DNA of 64,000 nt from Balanoglossus misakiensis (lineage: Eukaryota > Animalia > Hemichordata), in contig CM082587.2 of the NCBI GenBank assembly GCA_040954595.2, positions 11,897,262-11,961,261 on the forward strand. The letters run 5' to 3'. Position 1 is the first letter of the stretch. Every line of letters begins with the position of its first letter. Positions 12,001 to 25,200 of the stretch are shown piece by piece. The translations under genes were made by a program, and so were the position numbers. Under the pieces are notes generated by a model that saw only the letters and a list, made by a program, of their open reading frames with translations, had not been told where the DNA came from and did no database searches.

Positions 12001-13953
12001 AGCCGTCCTGCATCAATTATGAATTGTGTACATGCACTAAAGCGCCCTCACTGCTGGGTGTGTTGTATGGTCTTTAACCCTGTTTCAAATTAGAGTACTT
12101 TCTGCAATTTCAAGACAGATCTTACGTGCCATTGGAGAGCTCCATTGACTGGTCATTCATACTGTTTTCATTCATTCATTGCGGCATCAATATATTTTAT
12201 GTATTCTAGCCAAAGAGCTTGGCACCTGTTGAAATGAACTCATCTGCTGTGGGCCAGTTTATTGGTGGCAGTTGAGCTGAGGAGAGCACCTTCCTTCCCG
12301 GCACGCCACCAAGTAAAGTTCCACGCCGCCCACCACAGATGCCAGCATTCATTCATGCGAGTGAGTGTAATTGCAAATTTGCCTATTCTAGATCTGTAAT
12401 GGAAATGGAGAAAGTACCTTATATTTTCTGTAAAATAGACATTTAATTGGCAAGCCGTCCTGCATCAATTATTAATTGTGTACATGCACTAAAGCGCCCT
12501 CACTGCTGGGTGTGTTGTATGGTCTTTAACCCTGTTTCAAATTAGAGTACTTTCTGCAATTTCAAGACAGATCTTACGTGCCATTGGAGAGCTCCATTGA
12601 CTGGTCATTCATACTGTTTTCATTCATTCATTGCGGCATCAATATATTTTATCTATTCTAGCCAAAGAGCTTGGCACCTGTTGAAATGAACTCATCTGCT
12701 GTGGGCCAGTTTATTGGTGGCAGTTGAGCTGAGGAGAGCACCTTCCTTCCCGGCACGCCACCAAGTAAAGTTCCACGCCGCCCACCACAGATGCCAGCAT
12801 TCATTCATGCGAGTGAGTGTAATTGCAAATTTGCCTATTCTAGAATTACGTGCCATTGGAGAGCTCCATTGACTGGTCATTCATACTGTTTTCATTCATT
12901 CATTGCGGCATCAATATATTTTATCTATTCTAGCCAAAGAGCTTGGCACCTGTTGAAATGAACTCATCTGCTGTGGGCCAGTTTATTGGTGGCAGTTGAG
13001 CTGAGGAGAGCACCTTCCTTCCCGGCACGCCACCAAGTAAAGTTCCACGCCGCCCACCACAGATGCCAGCATTCATTCATGCGAGTGAGTGTAATTGCAA
13101 ATTTGCCTATTCTAGATCTGTAATGGAAATGGAGAAAGTACCTTATATTTTCTGTAAAATAGACATTTAATTGGCAAGCCGTCCTGCATCAATTATGAAT
13201 TGTGTACATGCACTAAAGCGCCCTCACTGCTGGGTGTGTTGTATGGTCTTTAACCCTGTTTCAAATTAGAGTACTTTCTGCAATTTCAAGACAGATCTTA
13301 CGTGCCATTGGAGAGCTCCATTGACTGGTCATTCATACTGTTTTCATTCATTCATTGCGGCATCAATATATTTTATCTATTCTAGCCAAAGAGCTTGGCA
13401 CCTGTTGAAATGAACTCATCTGCTGTGGGCCAGTTTATTGGTGGCAGTTGAGCTGAGGAGAGCACCTTCCTTCCCGGCACGCCACCAAGTAAAGTTCCAC
13501 GCCGCCCACCACAGATGCCAGCATTCATTCATGCGAGTGAGTGTAATTGCAAATTTGCCTATTCTAGATCTGTAATGGAAATGGAGAAAGTACCTTATAT
13601 TTTCTGTAAAATAGACATTTAATTGGCAAGCCGTCCTGCATCAATTATGAATTGTGTACATGCACTAAAGCGCCCTCACTGCTGGGTGTGTTGTATGGTC
13701 TTTAACCCTGTTTCAAATTAGAGTACTTTCTGCAATTTCAAGACAGATCTTACGTGCCATTGGAGAGCTCCATTGACTGGTCATTCATACTGTTTTCATT
13801 CATTCATTGCGGCATCAATATATTTTATCTATTCTAGCCAAAGAGCTTGGCACCTGTTGAAATGAACTCATCTGCTGTGGGCCAGTTTATTGGTGGCAGT
13901 TGAGCTGAGGAGAGCACCTTCCTTCCCGGCACGCCACCAAGTAAAGTTCCACG
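1..13953. repeat. Tandem satellite array, left arm; mix of 452-bp (MITE-filled) and 272/274/275-bp (empty) monomers
   Basis: TGAAATGAACTCATCTG recurs at 1, 453, 727, 1001, 1453, 1725... (periods 452, 274, 274, 452, 272). Monomers are near-identical and head-to-tail. The array breaks after ...GTAAAGTTCCACG at 13953. Confidence 0.98.
161..345. mobile_element. MITE-like non-autonomous element (representative copy; present in every 452-bp monomer)
   Basis: 161-188 AGATCTGTAATGGAAATGGAGAAAGTAC matches the reverse complement of 318-345 (AGATCTGTCTTGAAATTGCAGAAAGTAC) at 23/28. AGATCT is repeated 179 bp apart. The segment is absent from short monomers. TSD length is ambiguous (AT, GATC or AGATCT) because the site is palindromic. 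Confidence 0.85.
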
Positions 13954-15746
13954 TGCATTCCTGGCCCTGGTTTTATTTATGTTTACAGACAATATTGCAT
14001 TTTTGTACAAGTATTTTAATCAACTATAAATTTTGAATGTGTCATTTACCTGAACCGGTCATGTTGACCAGAATGATACATTTCTGCCTTCACTCACCCT
14101 ATAAATATGTGATTGAGACATAGGTCATTTGCATAAGCTAACATACCAGAAAGTAAGCATATCTGTTGTTTTCCCTGTGTCACTGCCATCAAAGTAAAAA
14201 TTAGACGTTGTGTAGAGCAAACTCCAATTTTTTGTTCTCAATAAACATGGATGAATTACATAGAATGTGTTTGTTGTTTACAGTCTTTAAATGACACATT
14301 AGATTATGCACTTTACAAAACGTTTCTGAGAAACAAGTGACTAACTAGTTTCTTTCCACTGTGGCCAACGTGGTTCACTGTTTGTGTCAGAATCTCTCTG
14401 TTTTGCAAGGATTTTGAAATCATAGTGGTGACATGCATAGTGAAAATCAGCTACTTTCAAATGTCCGTCATGTTCATGCTGTAATTGAATTTTCAAAGCT
14501 GGGCTGGCGTGTTTTTTCTTATTTACATAAGTATCACACTTTATACATGTATCTTCATGGGGTTTTTTGAGTCCCGTATTTAGGTCCTCTCTCACAATTT
14601 TACGAAATATCGTATAACTGACAGTTGTTCTTCCCAGAAGAGATTGGTTGGTTATGAACTCTCGGTGTAACTGCGATATACTGTGGTCCGGCGCCAGGTA
14701 CGGTTTAAATCGAGGATTCCTGCAGTAGTGAGATTCTACAATTCTGTGCCTGCGTACGTGTTCAGTGATATCAGTCAGCAAATTTGGATTGAGTTTCCGA
14801 CGATGCCCTTTGTGTCGGCCCCTTGCATCTGGCATCAGACCAGTAAAGTTCCATGTGCATTCCTGGCCCTGGTTTTATTTATGTTTACAGACAATATTGC
14901 ATTTTTGTACAAGTATTTTAATCAACTATAAATTTTGAATGTGTCATTTACCTGAACCGGTCATGTTGACCAGAATGATACATTTCTGCCTTCACTCACC
15001 CTATAAATATGTGATTGAGACATAGGTCATTTGCATAAGCTAACATACCAGAAAGTAAGCATATCTGTTGTTTTCCCTGTGTCACTGCCATCAAAGTAAA
15101 AATTAGACGTTGTGTAGAGCAAACTCCAATTTTTTGTTCTCAATAAACATGGATGAATTACATAGAATGTGTTTGTTGTTTACAGTCTTTAAATGACACA
15201 TTAGATTATGCACTTTACAAAACGTTTCTGAGAAACAAGTGACTAACTAGTTTCTTTCCACTGTGGCCAACGTGGTTCACTGTTTGTGTCAGAATCTCTC
15301 TGTTTTGCAAGGATTTTGAAATCATAGTGGTGACATGCATAGTGAAAATCAGCTACTTTCAAATGTCCGTCATGTTCATGCTGTAATTGAATTTTCAAAG
15401 CTGGGCTGGCGTGTTTTTTCTTATTTACATAAGTATCACACTTTATACATGTATCTTCATGGGGTTTTCTGAGTCCCGTATTTAGGTCCTCTCTCACAAT
15501 TTTACGAAATATCGTATAACTGACAGTTGTTCTTCCCAGAAGAGATTGGTTGGTTATGAACTCTCGGTGTAACTGCGATATACTGTGGTCCGGCGCCAGG
15601 TACGGTTTAAATCGAGGATTCCTGCAGTAGTGAGATTCTACAATTCTGTGCCTGCGTACGTGTTCAGTGATATCAGTCAGCAAATTTGGATTGAGTTTCC
15701 GACGATGCCCTTTGTGTCGGCCCCTTGCATCTGGCATCAGACCAGT
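13940..15746. repeat. 902-bp tandem duplication (two copies)
   Basis: GTAAAGTTCCA(C/T)GTGCATTCCTGG occurs at 13941 and 14843. Both copies end ...GGCATCAGACCAGT. Two substitutions noticed between copies. AGT microhomology at the junction. Confidence 0.95.
14341..14835 (-). pseudogene. 5'-truncated duplicate of the transposase N-half ORF (its last 164 codons)
   Basis: Identical to the C-terminal 164 aa of 15243-16205 except R->K (GLRKP/GLKKP). Created by the 902-bp duplication. Confidence 0.85.
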
Positions 15747-16199
15747 TGAACAGTGCATCATTTTGCTTAGAACGGTTCTAGTCCGCCTCTCACTAATGCC
15801 AAATAATTTCAGGAATGCATTTTTGCAGACAGTAACCGTTTCACCGCCTTCATTCACCAGGTGATAACGAACCGATTTCTTGTGTGACTTCATCTGTATA
15901 TCCATCAGTTTGTAGAGCATCAAGTTCTGTTCATTATACACGCGACCATCAAAATATTTTCTCGTGGTGCCTAAAACATGCGTACTCCCAAGCTTCCGCA
16001 GACAATTCCCTTGAACGCAGGCGCATTCCAAGGAAAGACTGTCAATATCTGGAAAAGGGCGATTTTTCCTTGGTTTTTGTCTCGGACACGTCTTTTTAGA
16101 ATTCCTACGTGGCTTGTTGGCTCGAGCTGACAGTTCGGTTCTGCGTTGCTGCCACACAGGAATGGGTTCCCACGCATAAGCAACTCCCCGGCAGGCCAT
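15243..16199 (-). CDS. Sola1-like transposase N-terminal half (Cys/His-rich, putative DNA-binding), 318 aa from first ATG
   Basis: Motif series CxC..C, VCKNAFLKLFGIS, DARGRH, ESHYCR..YL, YTIFRKI, KPHEDTCIKCD, H..H...A matches the region that normally precedes the catalytic core in Sola1-type transposases. The ORF is intact. Minus-strand AATAAA candidate near 14875. Confidence 0.75.
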   Translation of the reverse strand: MACRGVAYAWEPIPVWQQRRTELSARANKPRRNSKKTCPRQKPRKNRPFPDIDSLSLECACVQGNCLRKLGSTHVLGTTRKYFDGRVYNEQNLMLYKLMDIQMKSHKKSVRYHLVNEGGETVTVCKNAFLKLFGISERRTRTVLSKMMHCSTGLMPDARGRHKGHRRKLNPNLLTDITEHVRRHRIVESHYCRNPRFKPYLAPDHSISQLHREFITNQSLLGRTTVSYTIFRKIVREDLNTGLRKPHEDTCIKCDTYVNKKKHASPALKIQLQHEHDGHLKVADFHYACHHYDFKILAKQRDSDTNSEPRWPQWKETS

Positions 16200-16370
16200 G
16201 GTCACAGCTGAAGTATTTGTTCAAGTACTGACTGACTAAACGCGGCATGGAACAAACGAACGAACGAACGAACGACTTCACGTTCGGAAAAAAAATCGTT
16301 GCGAGCTGTTGGGTGCCTCTATAGTTGTCGGCAACCGTTCTTTTTTATTGCTAAACAATGCTGTCAGAGC
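16200..16370. promoter_or_regulatory. Putative bidirectional promoter between the two transposase halves
   Basis: 171 bp between divergent ATGs (16199 on -, 16371 on +). Contains ACTG x2-3, (GAAC)n at ~16258-16273 and TTCGGAA at 16283. Function is inferred from geometry only. Confidence 0.45.
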
Positions 16371-17384
16371 ATGGAAGGTGTGGTGGAAAACGAACAGAGG
16401 TTTTGTACGACCAACGATTGGATGGTGCTACATATGGACTTCCACAAGTCATTGCCGGTTCCTAAACTCAGCTCTGAAGACTTTTACTTTAAATCGAAAT
16501 TGCAAATGAAGCTCCTTGGAATTTACAACGGGACAACGGAAAAGATGCATTGTTATGTATGGACAGAGCTCGATAGCAGAAAGTCTCCCGATGAAGTTAT
16601 TACCTGTCTAAATCACTTTTTTTATAACTCGGGTGTGACCAGCAGACATGCAGTTATTTACAGCGACAACTGCCGTGCCGAATTCAAGTGTGGGAAGTTA
16701 ATGTTTTACTATGACTATCTGTTACGAAAGGGCGTGTTTCGACGAATTGACTATAAAACTCTTGTGGCTGGACACACGTACTCCACCTGTGACCGAGTTT
16801 TTGCGTCCATTGAAAGGCATGCAAGTCGTTTCCAGAGTATAGAGACACCTCACGATTGGACATCTGTGATTCGAGGATCTTCTCTGAATGGGAACATTGG
16901 AGTTACGGAGATGACTCACAGAGACTTTTTCAATTATTCTGATTTCCTGAAAAATGAGTACGTTGTGCGTTATGCAGATACAAACAATGTAACTTTTTAC
17001 TACCAAGCCATGCACTATTTTAATTTTGGAGAAGGAGAAAGGCTTGATACCGACGGCAACCTCAGAACATTTAGTCATGCAGATAAAGTTTGGGTGAGAA
17101 CATCTCTAGATCCAAGCGAGACCCCGATTGTAGTCGACTTTAGAAAGAAGAAGCAGAACCGGCGTTTACAAGATTGTACGCTGAACAAACTTTATCAGGA
17201 ACGTCGACCACTGGCGAGCAAAGTTTGGCGGGATCTTCAGAGTTTAGCCAAAAATTACCTGTCTCCGGAGGCAATAGAATTTTATAGGAATCTACCGCTT
17301 CAGGAGAGTAGTGGCACCTCTGCAGACCCGTACGCCTTTCATGATGATGACGACGACGATGATGATGATATGGGCGGTGGTTGA
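16371..17384 (+). CDS. Sola1-like transposase catalytic (DDD) half, 337 aa from first in-frame ATG, acidic tail
   Basis: MDFHKSLPVPKL...FYFKSKL...YVWTE...DEVITCL...IYSDNC...LVAGHTYSTCDRVFASIE: three Asp in the typical Sola-like context (D-F, SDNC, GHTxxxCD). Ends in a poly-Asp run. Confidence 0.82.
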   Translation: MEGVVENEQRFCTTNDWMVLHMDFHKSLPVPKLSSEDFYFKSKLQMKLLGIYNGTTEKMHCYVWTELDSRKSPDEVITCLNHFFYNSGVTSRHAVIYSDNCRAEFKCGKLMFYYDYLLRKGVFRRIDYKTLVAGHTYSTCDRVFASIERHASRFQSIETPHDWTSVIRGSSLNGNIGVTEMTHRDFFNYSDFLKNEYVVRYADTNNVTFYYQAMHYFNFGEGERLDTDGNLRTFSHADKVWVRTSLDPSETPIVVDFRKKKQNRRLQDCTLNKLYQERRPLASKVWRDLQSLAKNYLSPEAIEFYRNLPLQESSGTSADPYAFHDDDDDDDDDMGGG

Positions 17385-17484
17385 ACAAACTGTCCTTTTC
17401 ATGACGACAGTGATTTTGGATATTTGATGTGCGTGCACAGTTTATATGTAATATTTTCACACGAACGAGTTTTGACTGAATTTG

Positions 17485-17570
17485 ATTAAAGAATGTACTC
17501 GATAATTAACAAATGTGCTGAATCGTGGTTATTATGTTGTTAATTTTTGTTTGTTTGTTTGTTTGTTTGT
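17485..17570 (+). terminator. Candidate poly(A) signal with downstream GT-rich tract
   Basis: ATTAAA at 17485-17490, ~100 bp after the stop, followed by (TTTG)n at ~17546-17570. Confidence 0.4.
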
Positions 17571-17702
17571 AAACAATTTCCGTTCATTCAACTGGCTACA
17601 AAGTTGGATTTTTGTACTGGGAAGCGATAAACTCGCACATCAAAACCGGGGAGACTCGATCATTTTTCCCTGCAGGTAGCCTGAAAAGCACCCGGGCAGA
17701 GA

Positions 17703-17776
17703 TTACGTCATATATGGTCCACTTTAATACGAAATTATGCAAATGTGACATTTCACGGAAACGGCGTATATAAAAG
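17703..17776 (+). promoter_or_regulatory. Pol II promoter of the SET gene: CRE-like site, octamer and TATA box
   Basis: TTACGTCA 17703-17710, ATGCAAAT 17737-17744, TATAAAAG 17769-17776, ~90 bp upstream of ATG 17868. Confidence 0.6.
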
Positions 17777-17867
17777 CGACCCTGGGCTATTGTTCGGAAT
17801 GCGTCATCGACGAGAGAGTGACTGATAATTCTTCTACCTCGAGTCAACCATTCTGTATATACTGAAC

Positions 17868-19194
17868 ATGGCTAGCTGGCGCAGGAAGAGACAAGGCAAT
17901 GTGCGGTCTGTAATCAACGAACGGCACCGCTCAGTTCAGTGTCCCTTTCTTCAAAAGTGGATCGGTGAGCAATTGGTATTTTCAGGTCGTTCAGAGGATG
18001 AAGTCCAGTCCAGTACTGTATTTGAGAGCTACAAATGTTGGGTTGAAAACTATTCGTCGGCGGACAATCAAGTAATGATTATGGTTACTAAAGCTCGATT
18101 TTTCAAGGTGAGAATGATCGCATTTTTCTTCCCCCCCCCCCTCCCTCCCCCAAGGGACTCGTTTTCTGTCTCTTTTAAACCTGTAACTTAACGAAAAGGA
18201 AGTTTTTCACATATCTCTTTGTTGACACTATAGCAATTTGGAGCGCGGATGCTTCAAGAGAATAGCGTTACCAAATCAAAGTCGGCCGGGGTTAATATTT
18301 ATAGAGGTGTTCGTCTGAAAGCTGGTTCGCGAAGAATCTCAACGGGGAAACCTGAGCACAGTGTACTTCAGACCAGGGCAAGGGCATTTCTTGATGACGC
18401 CAGCGTGACCGTTCCGATCGAGGTAAGAATGGTGTTTTGTTTGGACTAGGACAATAGAACGTTGCAATGAGTGTGTCAATGGGTGTCCAAGTGCAAACGT
18501 GGTCGGCTTCTGTCCACAAATGCCATTAATTTTAGGCAGGATTTATAAAATTGTCAATGAAGAATACAAAAATGAAAAACAATAGTTAATAGCAAACGGG
18601 TAGGATTGCAAGGGCTTGTAAAACGGTACACACTGTACCAGGAAGTTTGCAACACTAATGAAGAATGTATATGATATATTTAGGTGAGAACTGTTCGCGA
18701 TCGCCGGGACGCAGGACGGTGCGCGTTTTCGACGAGGGATCTTCAAGCCTGGAACGTCGTCTGCGAATACCGGGGCACGGTTATTAGCGTTGAAGAAGCT
18801 AGTCGGCGTGATGAACTTTACAGGGCAGAGGGGAAACGACCACGCATGTTTCATCTCTACATTGGAAAGAGACACGTTGTGTGAGTGTATCACTTAGTCG
18901 AATATATGGTCATATATTGCAAAGCATCTGTCGAAATAGAAAACGTAATATTGTCTATATTTTCCTCATTAACGCAGCATTGACGGATACGATGTCCCAG
19001 CCGGTGAAGAAAATTTAGCGGGCCTAATAAATCACAGTCAGCAGAACGCCAACTTGGTACCGGTTCGGATCGGAGAGCGCCTGGTTTTCTTTGCAACCAG
19101 GAATCTTTGTCAGGGAGTAGAGCTTTTGTATGATTACGGTGACGGGGGTGAAGAGGATTTCTTCAGTGGTTCTCAAACTTTTCCTGAAAATTAA
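17868..19194 (+). CDS. Winged-helix-like + SET-domain lysine methyltransferase (SETD8/PR-Set7-like), 4 exons, 280 aa
   Basis: Exons 17868-18107, 18234-18422, 18684-18880, 18978-19194 with GT-AG introns (GTGAGA, GTAAGA, GTGAGT donors) join in frame (843 nt). SET motifs: GRCAFSTRD, VCEYRG, IDG, AGLINHS, FFATRNL..GVELLYDYGD. The N-terminus (VFESYKCW...FFKQF...IYRGVRLK) resembles an RFX/D5-type winged helix. Confidence 0.85.
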
Positions 19195-20101
19195 GGCATT
19201 AACACATCAACGCTTCGGGATGTCGTAACGGCGGCAAGGCGGGGGGGGGGGGGGGGGGGCGTGAAAATGTTTGTATCAGGAACAAAATTCCCGTGCAAAT
19301 CACCTTGATCCGGGTGGGTGGACTATTCGCGACAAATGTTGAAATCATACAAAGCATTTTACTTAATTAACCCATTTTTTTCATTTATTTGTTTACAGTT
19401 TACAACGTCATAGAGAAGTTGAACTAGAGACTGGATCAGCGTGGGTGACACCATAGTACACCAATGTTTTCTTCAGTTTGATTCAATTGTAATTTAAAAC
19501 TGAGATTGCCTAACGCTTTCCCAGATTTTTTTAACCACTGAGAAACTGTGGGTTTTTTTCTGGGTTTTGGTGCGAGGTGATCTCAGTCAGTGGTGTTAAT
19601 TTAATTAATCATTTTCTTTTCCTATTTACGTCGACTGAAATGTATTTTGATAGGTGATAGTCATACCATAAAAAAATCTTACGGCGCGACTGCCAAAATG
19701 TACATTTATTTGTCCGTTCCAAGTTATTTTGTGTATGTGTGATGGGTGCCGGTGACTGTGCAGGGTTGATTTCCCTAGAGCGACTGTTATATTCGTTTTC
19801 CAACGATGATGAATTTACATGTTATTTGCTTGGCATTTTGACGCAGAGACACTTCTGAAAACACAAACCTATTAATTATGCCACGGGTGTAAATTGATCA
19901 CATTAAAAGAGGCTTTAGACGTTTGCCGCGAGCTCCTGGTGGGCAGAATCTTGTCAGCCCAAATTTGACTATAAGTACATAGCCAATGATGTGACGCTCT
20001 CCCACATCCTTCGCCGCGCCTTTTCGCTGATTTACAGCATCTTGCGTAAACACTGTCATTTGATCTTGCTTGGCAGAAGTCAACTTGCTCTATACTACAT
20101 T

Positions 20102-20467
20102 ATGGCGGCCAAGCTCAACTGCATATCAGATAATGCCAAGGAGCGTTTGAGAGGCATCCTCGCCAGAAGGAGTCGCGTTTCCGGTGACTGTGTGCTCTGG
20201 ACGGGTGCAGCTTGTCGAAACGGCTATGGCTCTATTACGTTCAGAGATGAGAACACTCTAACCGCCTATGTCCATCACATTGCACTCCTAATTAACGGAG
20301 TGCAATTGGTGGGCAGGCGGTTAGAGTGTTCTCATCTTTGCAACGAAAAGCTATGCATCCGCCCAGAGCACATTGTCCAGGAAACGCGACTCCTAAACAT
20401 TTCACGAAAGACGTGCTTTAAATCCCCAAAAGGGGAGTGTCACCACGATCCCAGGTGCCTAAGGTGA
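20102..20467 (+). CDS. His-Cys box (His-Me finger) homing-endonuclease-like protein, 121 aa from ATG
   Basis: CVLWTG...GYG...VHH...SHLCNEKLCIRPEHIVQE...NISRKTC...CHHDPRC matches the zinc-binding loop pattern of I-PpoI-type His-Cys box nucleases. Confidence 0.85.
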   Translation: MAAKLNCISDNAKERLRGILARRSRVSGDCVLWTGAACRNGYGSITFRDENTLTAYVHHIALLINGVQLVGRRLECSHLCNEKLCIRPEHIVQETRLLNISRKTCFKSPKGECHHDPRCLR

Positions 20468-20758
20468 GTAATCCTCTTCTCATTTGATATGTATTGTGTG
20501 ACCCTGCAGTTGAAACGCTTTCATCAATAATTTGCGGCGCGTGGGTAATCTCGGTGTTATTGACAATGCAGCCGGCCCAAACATTTTTAAATTAACACTG
20601 TTTCTGACTGTATTAACGAAATGTCCAATTTGCAAGTAGCCTATAGACAACCCTTTTGAATGAGTTTTGTCTCGTTGAGATTTTATACATAAGGAACAAT
20701 CTAGATTTATTTTAGAAGACACTGTTCTTTTAAAACAGCTAGCATAATACAGCTAAAT

Positions 20759-21126
20759 TTCGGAATTTCCGGACAATTTTCGGAATTCCTTTTAAATTTG
20801 AGAAATTTTTCATCAGATATAAGTGTTACTATTTATTGGACATGTTTTTATCATTGTTTACTTTTTAAGGTCATTCTCATCCCCCCCCCCCCCCCCCAAA
20901 AAAAAGCCGCTTTAGGCTTCATGTTCAGTAAAAAATCTGGAAAGTTCAGCTGAATTTTACACTGATCACACATTTTTGGGAAGGTCTGGCGCAAAATAAA
21001 GGATGACAAATGTAAATCTAATGTCACATTTGTAAACCTCTAAGTATTGTACACTCATTCTATTAAGTATATGCAAATAGTACGGATAATTTTTTCGGAA
21101 TGTGGAATTCCGAAATTAGTTCGGAA
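20759..21126. repeat. Inverted repeat pair and TTCGGAA motif cluster
   Basis: 20767-20789 TTCCGGACAATTTTCGGAATTCC matches the reverse complement of 21104-21126 (TTCCGAACTAATTTCGGAATTCC) at 20/23. TTCGGAA or its complement at 20759, 20779, 21094, 21108, 21120. Confidence 0.6.
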
Positions 21127-21450
21127 CGTGTTAGCAGTGAAGAGATCACCACTGAGGGTTGGAAGGCCTTGCCAGAAATTAACGCGTAAAGTACGCCCTC
21201 ACAGGCCATGTAAACAAGGTCAAATAAGGCCGTCTGGCAAACGAATGATTAATTCAACGCGCCATTTGAGCCGAGCTGAGTTGGTCTGAGTTGCGTATCA
21301 CACAGACTTAGGCTGAATGTCAGTGGAGTAACCAGTCCGTTTTAGATTTACCAATGATGTGAATTTAATTTCTTCACCCAGAAAAACAGAACACAACTTG
21401 TCTGCAACATGATGCTGGAGGTGACACATGACAGAGAAGTGGATCCGCGT

Positions 21451-21787
21451 TGTCAACACAGATGCCAGCATTCAAAAGGGGAGTGCCACCTGCTAAAATC
21501 AACTCATCTGCTGTTGGCCCATTTTACCTGTGGCAACTGTTCAGAGGAGACAACGTTTATTCCGTGCAAGCCAACACGCAATGTTGGGGTCTACCTGTCA
21601 ACACAGATGCAAGCATTCATGTGAGTGAGTATCAGGACTGACCTTGTTTTGCTGAATAATTCATAATGCCTATTTTAGAATTCTTAGAGGCATTTGGAGT
21701 TCATTGCCTGGTCAACCAAACTACACCCCTTAACAGCTGAAACAAAATGCGTATTGTGTTCATTCATTCATTGCTTCAATATATATA
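21451..21787 (+). repeat. Diverged copy of the satellite monomer inside the island
   Basis: Colinear matches: CACCTG..AAAT.AACTCATCTGCTGT.GGCC, GAGGAGA, CACAGATGC.AGCATTCAT, GAGTGAGT, TGCCTATT.TAGAATTCTTA, CATTG.CTGGTCA, TTCATTCATTCATTGC..TCAATATAT. Includes a 24-bp direct repeat at 21451 and 21596. Confidence 0.88.
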
Positions 21788-22253
21788 GGCAACATGAGTA
21801 TCAAGTAGCACTATTTGTTTACGATTGTATTCATGAAAACTTCCCACTAACAATTCCACAGTTAATATTGAACACATTTATCCAACAAGGTCAAAAGAAA
21901 AAGGGAATCTTCTGGTTCCAAAATACGCCACAAATGTGGGTCAACATACAGTGAAATATTATGGTGCTCAAATATGCAACATATCAAATCTGTCTCATCA
22001 AAGTCATGCTTTAAAAAAGAATTGAAAAGGTATTATTTATCCATTTGACTGCTGTATTTTCAGAAGGAAAACAAACTGAATTTGGTTTTTCATGTACAAA
22101 TATTTTCTGTAAAATAGACATTTAATTGGCAAGCCGTCCTGCATCAATTATTAATTGTGTACATGCACTAAAGCGCCCTCACTGCTGGGTGTGTTGTATG
22201 GTCTTTAACCCTGTTTCAAATTAGAGTACTTTCTGCAATTTCAAGACAGATCT

Positions 22254-25200
22254 TACGTGCCATTGGAGAGCTCCATTGACTGGTCATTCATACTGTTTTC
22301 ATTCATTCATTGCGGCATCAATATATTTTATGTATTCTAGCCAAAGAGCTTGGCACCTGTTGAAATGAACTCATCTGCTGTGGGCCAGTTTATTGGTGGC
22401 AGTTGAGCTGAGGAGAGCACCTTCCTTCCCGGCACGCCACCAAGTAAAGTTCCACGCCGCCCACCACAGATGCCAGCATTCATTCATGCGAGTGAGTGTA
22501 ATTGCAAATTTGCCTATTCTAGATCTGTAATGGAAATGGAGAAAGTACCTTATATTTTCTGTAAAATAGACATTTAATTGGCAAGCCGTCCTGCATCAAT
22601 TATGAATTGTGTACATGCACTAAAGCGCCCTCACTGCTGGGTGTGTTGTATGGTCTTTAACCCTGTTTCAAATTAGAGTACTTTCTGCAATTTCAAGACA
22701 GATCTTACGTGCCATTGGAGAGCTCCATTGACTGGTCATTCATACTGTTTTCATTCATTCATTGCGGCATCAATATATTTTATCTATTCTAGCCAAAGAG
22801 CTTGGCACCTGTTGAAATGAACTCATCTGCTGTGGGCCAGTTTATTGGTGGCAGTTGAGCTGAGGAGAGCACCTTCCTTCCCGGCACGCCACCAAGTAAA
22901 GTTCCACGCCGCCCACCACAGATGCCAGCATTCATTCATGCGAGTGAGTGTAATTGCAAATTTGCCTATTCTAGAATTACGTGCCATTGGAGAGCTCCAT
23001 TGACTGGTCATTCATACTGTTTTCATTCATTCATTGCGGCATCAATATATTTTATCTATTCTAGCCAAAGAGCTTGGCACCTGTTGAAATGAACTCATCT
23101 GCTGTGGGCCAGTTTATTGGTGGCAGTTGAGCTGAGGAGAGCACCTTCCTTCCCGGCACGCCACCAAGTAAAGTTCCACGCCGCCCACCACAGATGCCAG
23201 CATTCATTCATGCGAGTGAGTGTAATTGCAAATTTGCCTATTCTAGATCTGTAATGGAAATGGAGAAAGTACCTTATATTTTCTGTAAAATAGACATTTA
23301 ATTGGCAAGCCGTCCTGCATCAATTATGAATTGTGTACATGCACTAAAGCGCCCTCACTGCTGGGTGTGTTGTATGGTCTTTAACCCTGTTTCAAATTAG
23401 AGTACTTTCTGCAATTTCAAGACAGATCTTACGTGCCATTGGAGAGCTCCATTGACTGGTCATTCATACTGTTTTCATTCATTCATTGCGGCATCAATAT
23501 ATTTTATCTATTCTAGCCAAAGAGCTTGGCACCTGTTGAAATGAACTCATCTGCTGTGGGCCAGTTTATTGGTGGCAGTTGAGCTGAGGAGAGCACCTTC
23601 CTTCCCGGCACGCCACCAAGTAAAGTTCCACGCCGCCCACCACAGATGCCAGCATTCATTCATGCGAGTGAGTGTAATTGCAAATTTGCCTATTCTAGAA
23701 TCTTACGTGCCATTGGAGAGCTCCATTGACTGGTCATTCATACTGTTTTCATTCATTCATTGCGGCATCAATATATTTTATCTATTCTAGCCAAAGAGCT
23801 TGGCACCTGTTGAAATGAACTCATCTGCTGTGGGCCAGTTTATTGGTGGCAGTTGAGCTGAGGAGAGCACCTTCCTTCCCGGCACGCCACCAAGTAAAGT
23901 TCCACGCCGCCCACCACAGATGCCAGCATTCATTCATGCGAGTGAGTGTAATTGCAAATTTGCCTATTCTAGATCTGTAATGGAAATGGAGAAAGTACCT
24001 TATATTTTCTGTAAAATAGACATTTAATTGGCAAGCCGTCCTGCATCAATTATTAATTGTGTACATGCACTAAAGCGCCCTCACTGCTGGGTGTGTTGTA
24101 TGGTCTTTAACCCTGTTTCAAATTAGAGTACTTTCTGCAATTTCAAGACAGATCTTACGTGCCATTGGAGAGCTCCATTGACTGGTCATTCATACTGTTT
24201 TCATTCATTCATTGCGGCATCAATATATTTTATCTATTCTAGCCAAAGAGCTTGGCACCTGTTGAAATGAACTCATCTGCTGTGGGCCAGTTTATTGGTG
24301 GCAGTTGAGCTGAGAAGAGCACCTTCCTTCCCGGCACGCCACCAAGTAAAGTTCCACGCCGCCCACCACAGATGCCAGCATTCATTCATGCGAGTGAGTG
24401 TAATTGCAAATTTGCCTATTCTAGATCTGTAATGGAAATGGAGAAAGTACCTTATATTTTCTGTAAAATAGACATTTAATTGGCAAGCCGTCCTGCATCA
24501 ATTATGAATTGTGTACATGCACTAAAGCGCCCTCACTGCTGGGTGTGTTGTATGGTCTTTAACCCTGTTTCAAATTAGAGTACTTTCTGCAATTTCAAGA
24601 CAGATCTTACGTGCCATTGGAGAGCTCCATTGACTGGTCATTCATACTGTTTTCATTCATTCATTGCGGCATCAATATATTTTATCTATTCTAGCCAAAG
24701 AGCTTGGCACCTGTTGAAATGAACTCATCTGCTGTGGGCCAGTTTATTGGTGGCAGTTGAGCTGAGGAGAGCACCTTCCTTCCCGGCACGCCACCAAGTA
24801 AAGTTCCACGCCGCCCACCACAGATGCCAGCATTCATTCATGCGAGTGAGTGTAATTGCAAATTTGCCTATTCTAGATCTGTAATGGAAATGGAGAAAGT
24901 ACCTTATATTTTCTGTAAAATAGACATTTAATTGGCAAGCCGTCCTGCATCAATTATGAATTGTGTACATGCACTAAAGCGCCCTCACTGCTGGGTGTGT
25001 TGTATGGTCTTTAACCCTGTTTCAAATTAGAGTACTTTCTGCAATTTCAAGACAGATCTTACGTGCCATTGGAGAGCTCCATTGACTGGTCATTCATACT
25101 GTTTTCATTCATTCATTGCGGCATCAATATATTTTATCTATTCTAGCCAAAGAGCTTGGCACCTGTTGAAATGAACTCATCTGCTGTGGGCCAGTTTATT

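Follow-up and report, generated by a model that had tools for sequence, protein, structure and literature searches.

The window, a 64,000-nucleotide stretch of the hemichordate Balanoglossus misakiensis, is a nearly uniform satellite array broken by an 8.1-kb insert, and the question it raises is what a gene coding for a winged helix fused to a SET domain is doing there: whether it belongs to a mobile element, to the host or to something virus-like, and what its product would mark. The genes and other features of the insert are as follows, in window coordinates.

13940..15743, no strand: tandem duplication of 902 bp with 2 mismatches, beginning with satellite bases
13954..22099, no strand: non-satellite insert, 8.1 kb, within the satellite array
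15243..16199, minus strand: Cys/His-rich ORF of 318 aa without a Pfam match
16371..17384, plus strand: ORF of 337 aa, catalytic half, DUF7869 transposase-like (Pfam PF25273, E 1.4e-14; no other Pfam family)
17767..17775, plus strand: TATA-like box, a putative promoter from sequence only, ~95 nt 5' of the ATG
17868..18107, plus strand: exon 1 (aa 1-80), with a basic N-terminal tail and, from the winged helix, helices 1-2 and the beginning of helix 3
17949..18323, plus strand: RFX/D5-type winged helix (aa ~28-110), split by intron 1, as placed from a model of the orthologue
18234..18422, plus strand: exon 2 (aa 81-143), with the rest of the recognition helix, the wing hairpin, an Arg-containing linker and the pre-SET helix
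18684..18880, plus strand: exon 3 (aa 144-209), N-SET and i-SET, with Y172 (SETD8 Y245 position)
18714..19137, plus strand: SET core (aa ~154-262), split by intron 3
18978..19194, plus strand: exon 4 (aa 209-280 and stop), C-SET, with N227-H228, Y260 and Y262
20102..20467, plus strand: His-Me finger (His-Cys box) nuclease, I-PpoI-like, 121 aa (Pfam PF05551, E 2e-13)
20168..20394, plus strand: 227-nt hairpin in the nuclease coding sequence (-154.5 kcal/mol, z -18.2)

The array is highly regular. An anchor motif recurs at 141 intervals, 94 of which are 452 bp, 27 are 274 bp, 16 are 272 bp and three are 275 bp, with a single interval of 8503 bp at the site of the insert; the satellite is also homogeneous, with a mean of 0.54 mismatches per 452-bp unit. 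The 452-bp unit is the 272/274/275-bp unit with ~180 bp added, a piece bounded by inverted ends of 28 nt (82%), and the short units have four junction sequences (16, 14, 13 and 3 copies) with two-sided palindromic footprints that, from their sequence, look like MITE excision. The satellite was also considered as a multimer of the KolobokP LTDR, a candidate that we rejected: the period fits, but the junctions and the transposase do not.

The insert joins the satellite unit at position 204 on the left and at ~300 on the right, with ~95 bp of the unit absent at the junction. Neither a TIR nor a TSD was found at these junctions, and no second copy of the gene block is present within the 64-kb window; the native ends of the element may have been lost, and its left end is missing. 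The 902-bp duplication is younger than the insertion, because its start consists of satellite bases. Within the insert, the four-gene core has CpG observed/expected ratios of 0.84-1.51; the corresponding values are 0.44 for the satellite and 0.61 for the right flank. Four open ORFs or genes, three of them of mobile-element types, lie within 5.2 kb of this island, and all four share the A-3/G+4 start context, which 12 of the insert's 276 ATGs have. The rightmost 1.6 kb is non-coding and contains a stretch with 71% similarity to the satellite. In all, this copy has the look of a young remnant that was cut and rearranged inside the array; the array seems to have truncated and rearranged the insert rather than to have been its target.

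Several smaller features of the insert can be recorded alongside these. The satellite-like stretch lies at 21455-21790 (71% over 151 nt, plus shorter matches) and its sequence suggests an older satellite monomer adjoining the element. The native left end of the insert falls at 14856-14880, ~20 nt beyond a minus-strand AATAAA 3' of the 318-aa ORF, at the distance where a poly(A) site is expected. A pair of 23-nt inverted repeats 314 nt apart (20767-21126) is possibly a small MITE, and a short peptide without a Pfam match (21837-22045) is reminiscent of the 3' end of ORF2 in CR1/L2 LINEs. An Rfam search of 13500-22600 gave no match.

The original prediction was of a gene with four exons that splice in frame to 280 aa, and this has held. 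The ATG at 17868 has the A-3/G+4 context, a TAA stop ends exon 4, and the spliced product includes the INHS and ELLYDYGD motifs. The three introns (126, 261 and 97 nt; phases 0, 0 and 2) are all GT-AG, with donors GTGAGA, GTAAGA and GTGAGT. A RefSeq protein of Ptychodera flava (XP_070545977.1, 278 aa) is colinear with the product and aligns with it end to end, with 176 of 280 residues identical (63%), two gaps and E 6e-136; exon 4 as the sole query matched this protein and none of the other 92 candidates. The orthologue's own cluster has one member, and a word-based search with it retrieved only itself. The Pfam SET profile finds exon 4 (E 1.6e-7, above the cut-off) and, below the cut-off, exon 3 (E 0.003).

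To examine the junctions, each intron in turn was moved to all GT/AG pairs lying within 80 nt, the other two being kept as they were, and each product was scored globally against the orthologue. For introns 1-3 there were 91, 170 and 107 such pairs, of which 24, 10 and 14 give an open frame, and the proposed junction scores best in all three. A comparison based on the protein sequences of other relatives suggests that the intron positions are common to other spliced members of the family: four of six short gene-caller fragments end at the position of the exon-3 end, five of the six have unrelated sequence ending in Lys/Gln immediately before the exon-3 start, and the relative P0112 ends just past the exon-1 boundary. 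We conclude from the sequence that the gene is real and intact with four exons, the junctions being placed by protein-level evidence.

The N-terminal domain was predicted to be a winged helix, and structure comparison bears this out; the fold evidence comes from a model of the P. flava orthologue (mean pLDDT 86.6 with a 25-row alignment; 90.2 for the N-terminal domain alone). Compared with 48,161 chains, the modelled domain has the three-helix and wing fold of RFX1 (1dp7; Z 9.0, rmsd 2.3 A over 72 of 76 residues), followed by RFX5 (Z 8.9), the P4 origin-binding domain (7.6) and ASFV PrimPol (7.5), while unrelated winged helices score 6.3 or less. In a library of viral structures the top matches are viral primases and D5 helicases, and the ESM features of exon 1 from the window score 0.94-0.97 to clusters in which 25-71% of members carry Pox_D5. 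The window protein itself is recognized by an N-terminal HMM built without the orthologue (E 3.9e-15). The Pfam families RFX_DNA_binding and Pox_D5 match none of 16 family members, nor exon 1 of the window gene. As modelled, the N-terminus is a winged helix of the RFX/D5 class, and it is predicted to bind DNA.

The resemblance of the remainder to SETD8, also part of the original prediction, is well founded: SETD8 is the best solved match both by sequence (phmmer E 9e-10; family profile 3e-25) and by Foldseek, and the orthologue model matches hSET8 with a VIA Z of 16.8, with PDB 7d20 among the structure matches. Using human SETD8 numbering and residue roles that we take as given, the SAM-binding and catalytic positions Y245, N298, H299, Y334, Y336 and D338 are kept as Y172, N227, H228, Y260, Y262 and D264. 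The Y334 position is Trp in 18 of 27 family rows and Tyr in the window protein and its orthologue. The window protein has Asp at the position of E259 and Cys at that of G229; Cys is also found there in four of 66 canonical rows. The substrate side differs: the H4-binding strand of SETD8, C270-Y271-M-Y273-Y274-F275, is replaced by R-M-F-H-L after a one-residue gap, R295 is replaced by Gly, and the C-terminal H347-P-W349 cap is not kept, an acidic tail ending in Phe-Phe at the end of exon 4 taking the place of the HPW motif. Three canonical rows have anchor arginines 57 and 53 residues before Y245; the window protein has arginines at 59 and 58, near the R188 position only, and these are a plausible equivalent for one of the two. 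Human SET8 requires R188 and R192 to dock on the acidic patch of H3 and CENP-A nucleosomes, according to the available text of PMC7893823.

From its residues the window protein is likely to be an active lysine monomethyltransferase, with a monomethyl product expected because both switch tyrosines are kept. Specificity for H4K20, part of the original prediction through its likening to SETD8, is weakened: the strand that binds the substrate in SETD8 has been replaced, as have R295 and the H347/W349 cap. H4K20 would be the leading, unproven candidate target.

The fusion is not peculiar to these two hemichordates. A phmmer search of 1.84 billion representatives gave 341 matches at E 0.001, of which the best 150 were examined. 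The N-terminal HMM matches at least 27 proteins (27 of 156 examined), all with E of 6e-9 or less: 16 members of its training set, three cluster mates of one of them and eight new ones. Twenty-six of the 27 also carry a SET domain; they form at least 23 clusters at 50% identity, are 220-373 aa long and are 20-28% identical to the orthologue. On metagenomic contigs many relatives consist of one full-length ORF, and all nine full-length relatives that were looked up come from Logan, ENA or JGI contigs of 1-18 kb. As predicted, SETD8 itself lacks the winged helix, the HMM matching none of the 66 canonical SETD8-like rows.

A comparison of the SET domain with host SETD8 had also been proposed, and the trees, unrooted and based on ~150 columns with the canonical class defined by SET motifs, place the fusion family apart from canonical SETD8. 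Among 147 domains (10 of 157 rows were dropped for an incomplete SET), the 27 winged-helix rows and three N-terminally short rows separate from the other 117 with a local support of 84, and with 93 towards the canonical set; in a maximum-likelihood tree of 48 rows, 24 of the 66 canonical ones among them, the split has a support of 98. Recent capture of host SETD8 was considered and rejected on the basis of these trees. The fusion is, on this sequence evidence, an old family occurring in many unrelated records and not a one-off capture, since it is common to at least 23 clusters, whose SET domains form a group separate from canonical SETD8.

Searches for the family in a recognizable genomic setting gave little. 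Viral, metagenome and prokaryote contigs scanned with the transposase, family and nuclease queries yielded no contig with a family member; they gave two loci with a SET domain, and the winged helix is absent from both. No PHROG family matches more than two of 25 winged-helix-SET members, and in the ESM Atlas family member P0010 had scores of 0.76 and no matching cluster. We note separately a protein of 1132 aa, P0090, with an N-terminal SETD8-like SET domain and a superfamily-3 helicase (PPV_E1_C, DUF5906), which is another SET fusion with a mobile-element flavor.

The neighbors of the gene are of mobile-element types. DUF7869 we take to be a transposase, and the 318-aa ORF presumably corresponds to the N-terminal Cys/His-rich half of transposases of this type. 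The two ORFs are intact and head-to-head with 171 nt between them, both starting in a strong context, and the DUF7869 ORF ends 483 nt 5' of the ATG of the SET gene. The catalytic half has two matches (311 and 306 aa, 47-51% identity), of which the named one is from Saccoglossus kowalevskii (LOC100368598); both start with Met at the same column, and a later S. kowalevskii model has 38 additional, unrelated residues. For this half and for the SET gene alike, the closest named protein relative comes from a hemichordate. To judge from these sequences, the arrangement would fit either a natural two-gene split of the transposase or an inversion inside an ancestral intron. A PDB sequence search with the catalytic half gave no match, a literature search found no paper naming DUF7869, and the available text of bioRxiv 10.1101/2021.09.26.461848 was of no help in classing the transposase. 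On a putative assignment of the catalytic triad, the 41 residues that separate the SDNC aspartate from that of TCD lack the feature of CMC (CACTA/Mirage/Chapaev) enzymes. One candidate identity would be a Sola-like DDD enzyme.

On the other side of the SET gene, the nuclease has its motif intact (S-H-L-C, H, E and N are all present), and its best PDB match is I-PpoI (E 0.002). The hairpin within its coding sequence is far more stable than the other 240-nt tiles of the insert, with none of 200 shuffles as good, and it is weaker on the reverse strand (-140.6). It is possibly a source of siRNA or a translational brake on a toxic nuclease.

The position of the gene between a transposase and a homing-type nuclease makes it likely to be a mobile element's own enzyme. 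We consider it somewhat probable that the protein is a DNA-tethered monomethyltransferase that marks its element's own chromatin, and that its gene is an accessory gene of a DUF7869-transposase element also encoding a His-Me nuclease. The winged helix would read a sequence in the element's own DNA and would tether the SET domain there, instead of or beside the arginine anchor of SETD8; the SET domain would put one methyl group on a nucleosomal lysine close by, and the monomethyl mark would keep the promoters or ends of the element accessible. The present copy would not have been aimed at the satellite: it would be what remains of an element, truncated and rearranged, with the satellite expanding around it. 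The cargo status that had been predicted is likely, from adjacency: mobile-element genes do adjoin, but TIR, TSD, a second copy in the window and co-occurrence across genomes were not found, the SET orthologue coming from P. flava, which is absent from the two transposase matches (named: S. kowalevskii). A more ambitious version, to which we give only tentative credence, is a transposon lineage with naturally head-to-head transposase genes, a hairpin-restrained nuclease and a self-marking winged-helix-SET enzyme, combining VANDAL-like anti-silencing with a PRDM9-like writer.

Other readings can be set against this evidence. The gene could be a single-copy host or domesticated gene, coding for a PRDM9-like sequence-guided methyltransferase and adjoining unrelated mobile debris engulfed by the satellite. 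The one-member cluster in P. flava at 63% identity, the three introns at apparently common positions, the lack of TIR and TSD, and a right 1.6 kb that with its diverged satellite-like stretch looks like old host DNA would all agree with this; we nonetheless think it rather improbable given four intact ORFs in 5.2 kb, three of mobile-element types, with a uniform start context and a core without CpG depletion, and a family that is very divergent (20-28%) and mostly from short contigs, unlike a conserved host gene. The insert might instead be a piece of a larger element of virus-like or composite nature, the SET protein marking that element and not a cut-and-paste transposon. Winged helices of the D5/RFX type are typical of the primase-helicases of such elements, and the one here matches the C-terminal domains of viral primases and D5 proteins; many relatives are single full-length ORFs on metagenomic contigs, and the left end of the element is missing. 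The insert has no polymerase, capsid or packaging gene, however, RFX1 and RFX5 score at least as well as the viral domains, scans of viral contigs with the family queries gave no member, and PHROG families match at most two of 25, so that we regard a virus-like origin as distinctly unlikely.

Least probable of all, and in our view very improbable, is that H4K20me1 is written on satellite or CENP-A chromatin, linking the element to centromere function. In its favor, the satellite around the copy is highly homogeneous, the closest structure is that of SETD8, and CENP-A nucleosomes are bound by human SET8 (PMC7893823; PDB 7d20). In the available text of that paper, SET8 docks on H3 nucleosomes in the same way as on those with CENP-A. 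Likeness to SET8 therefore gives no centromere specificity. There is no sign that the satellite is centromeric, the substrate-binding residues differ from those of SETD8, and the family's age and spread go far beyond those of this array. The predicted role at the satellite or at CENP-A is accordingly unsupported here, the fusion family being old and widespread and the insert looking truncated and rearranged by the array.

The preferred reading, a tethered enzyme marking its own element, is of interest beyond this locus. In the literature searched, Repbase Reports, subscription papers and supplements lying outside its scope, neither this fusion nor this set of genes is described, and we found no explanation there of how SET-carrying transposons aim their SET enzymes. 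A protein of 280 aa with a DNA-reading domain and a SETD8-like domain makes such targeting directly testable, and the family that it defines numbers at least 23 divergent clusters, with an N-terminal domain that escapes Pfam. The family may also be relevant to the KMT5A-like expansions, themselves unexplained, of Hydractinia and sea urchin (PMC10368294); in the available text of that paper most of these carry the SET domain at the N-terminus, and they are therefore of a different architecture.

Among known systems the window protein is closest to SETD8/PR-Set7/KMT5A, its best match in sequence and fold, sharing the catalytic positions and the pre-SET helix; it differs in having an N-terminal winged helix, which none of the 66 canonical rows has, in its replaced H4-binding strand, R295 and HPW cap, and in belonging to a family whose SET domains lie on their own side of the unrooted tree. 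By tree placement it would not be a SETD8 orthologue, yet it probably works most like SETD8. SET genes are known in HarbingerS and oomycete MuDR transposons (Kojima and Jurka 2014, as cited in the available text of PMC12730594), and these too have a SET methyltransferase gene beside a DDE/D transposase; in the window the transposase is DUF7869, neither Harbinger nor MuDR, and a His-Me nuclease is added. A His-Me nuclease is known in KolobokP, but there the transposase is of another family, the nuclease is complementary to the catalytic ORF where that of the window is on the same strand, and the window junctions at 204/300 give no LTDR-INT-LTDR; the available text of PMC9587614 lists neither a SET gene nor a hemichordate host. 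The winged helix shares its fold with the domains of RFX, the P4 origin-binding protein and D5 over 72 of 76 residues of the orthologue model, at 17% identity, and is fused to a SET domain rather than to a transcription factor or helicase. Histone methyltransferases guided by DNA sequence are rare; the classic one, PRDM9, uses zinc fingers and a PR domain, and SETMAR is a host fusion to a mariner transposase. The VANC protein of plant VANDAL elements is element-encoded and sequence-specific, and is without a SET domain (available text of PMC12730594). What the window protein is predicted to share with PRDM9, SETMAR and VANC is the modification of chromatin under the guidance of DNA sequence.
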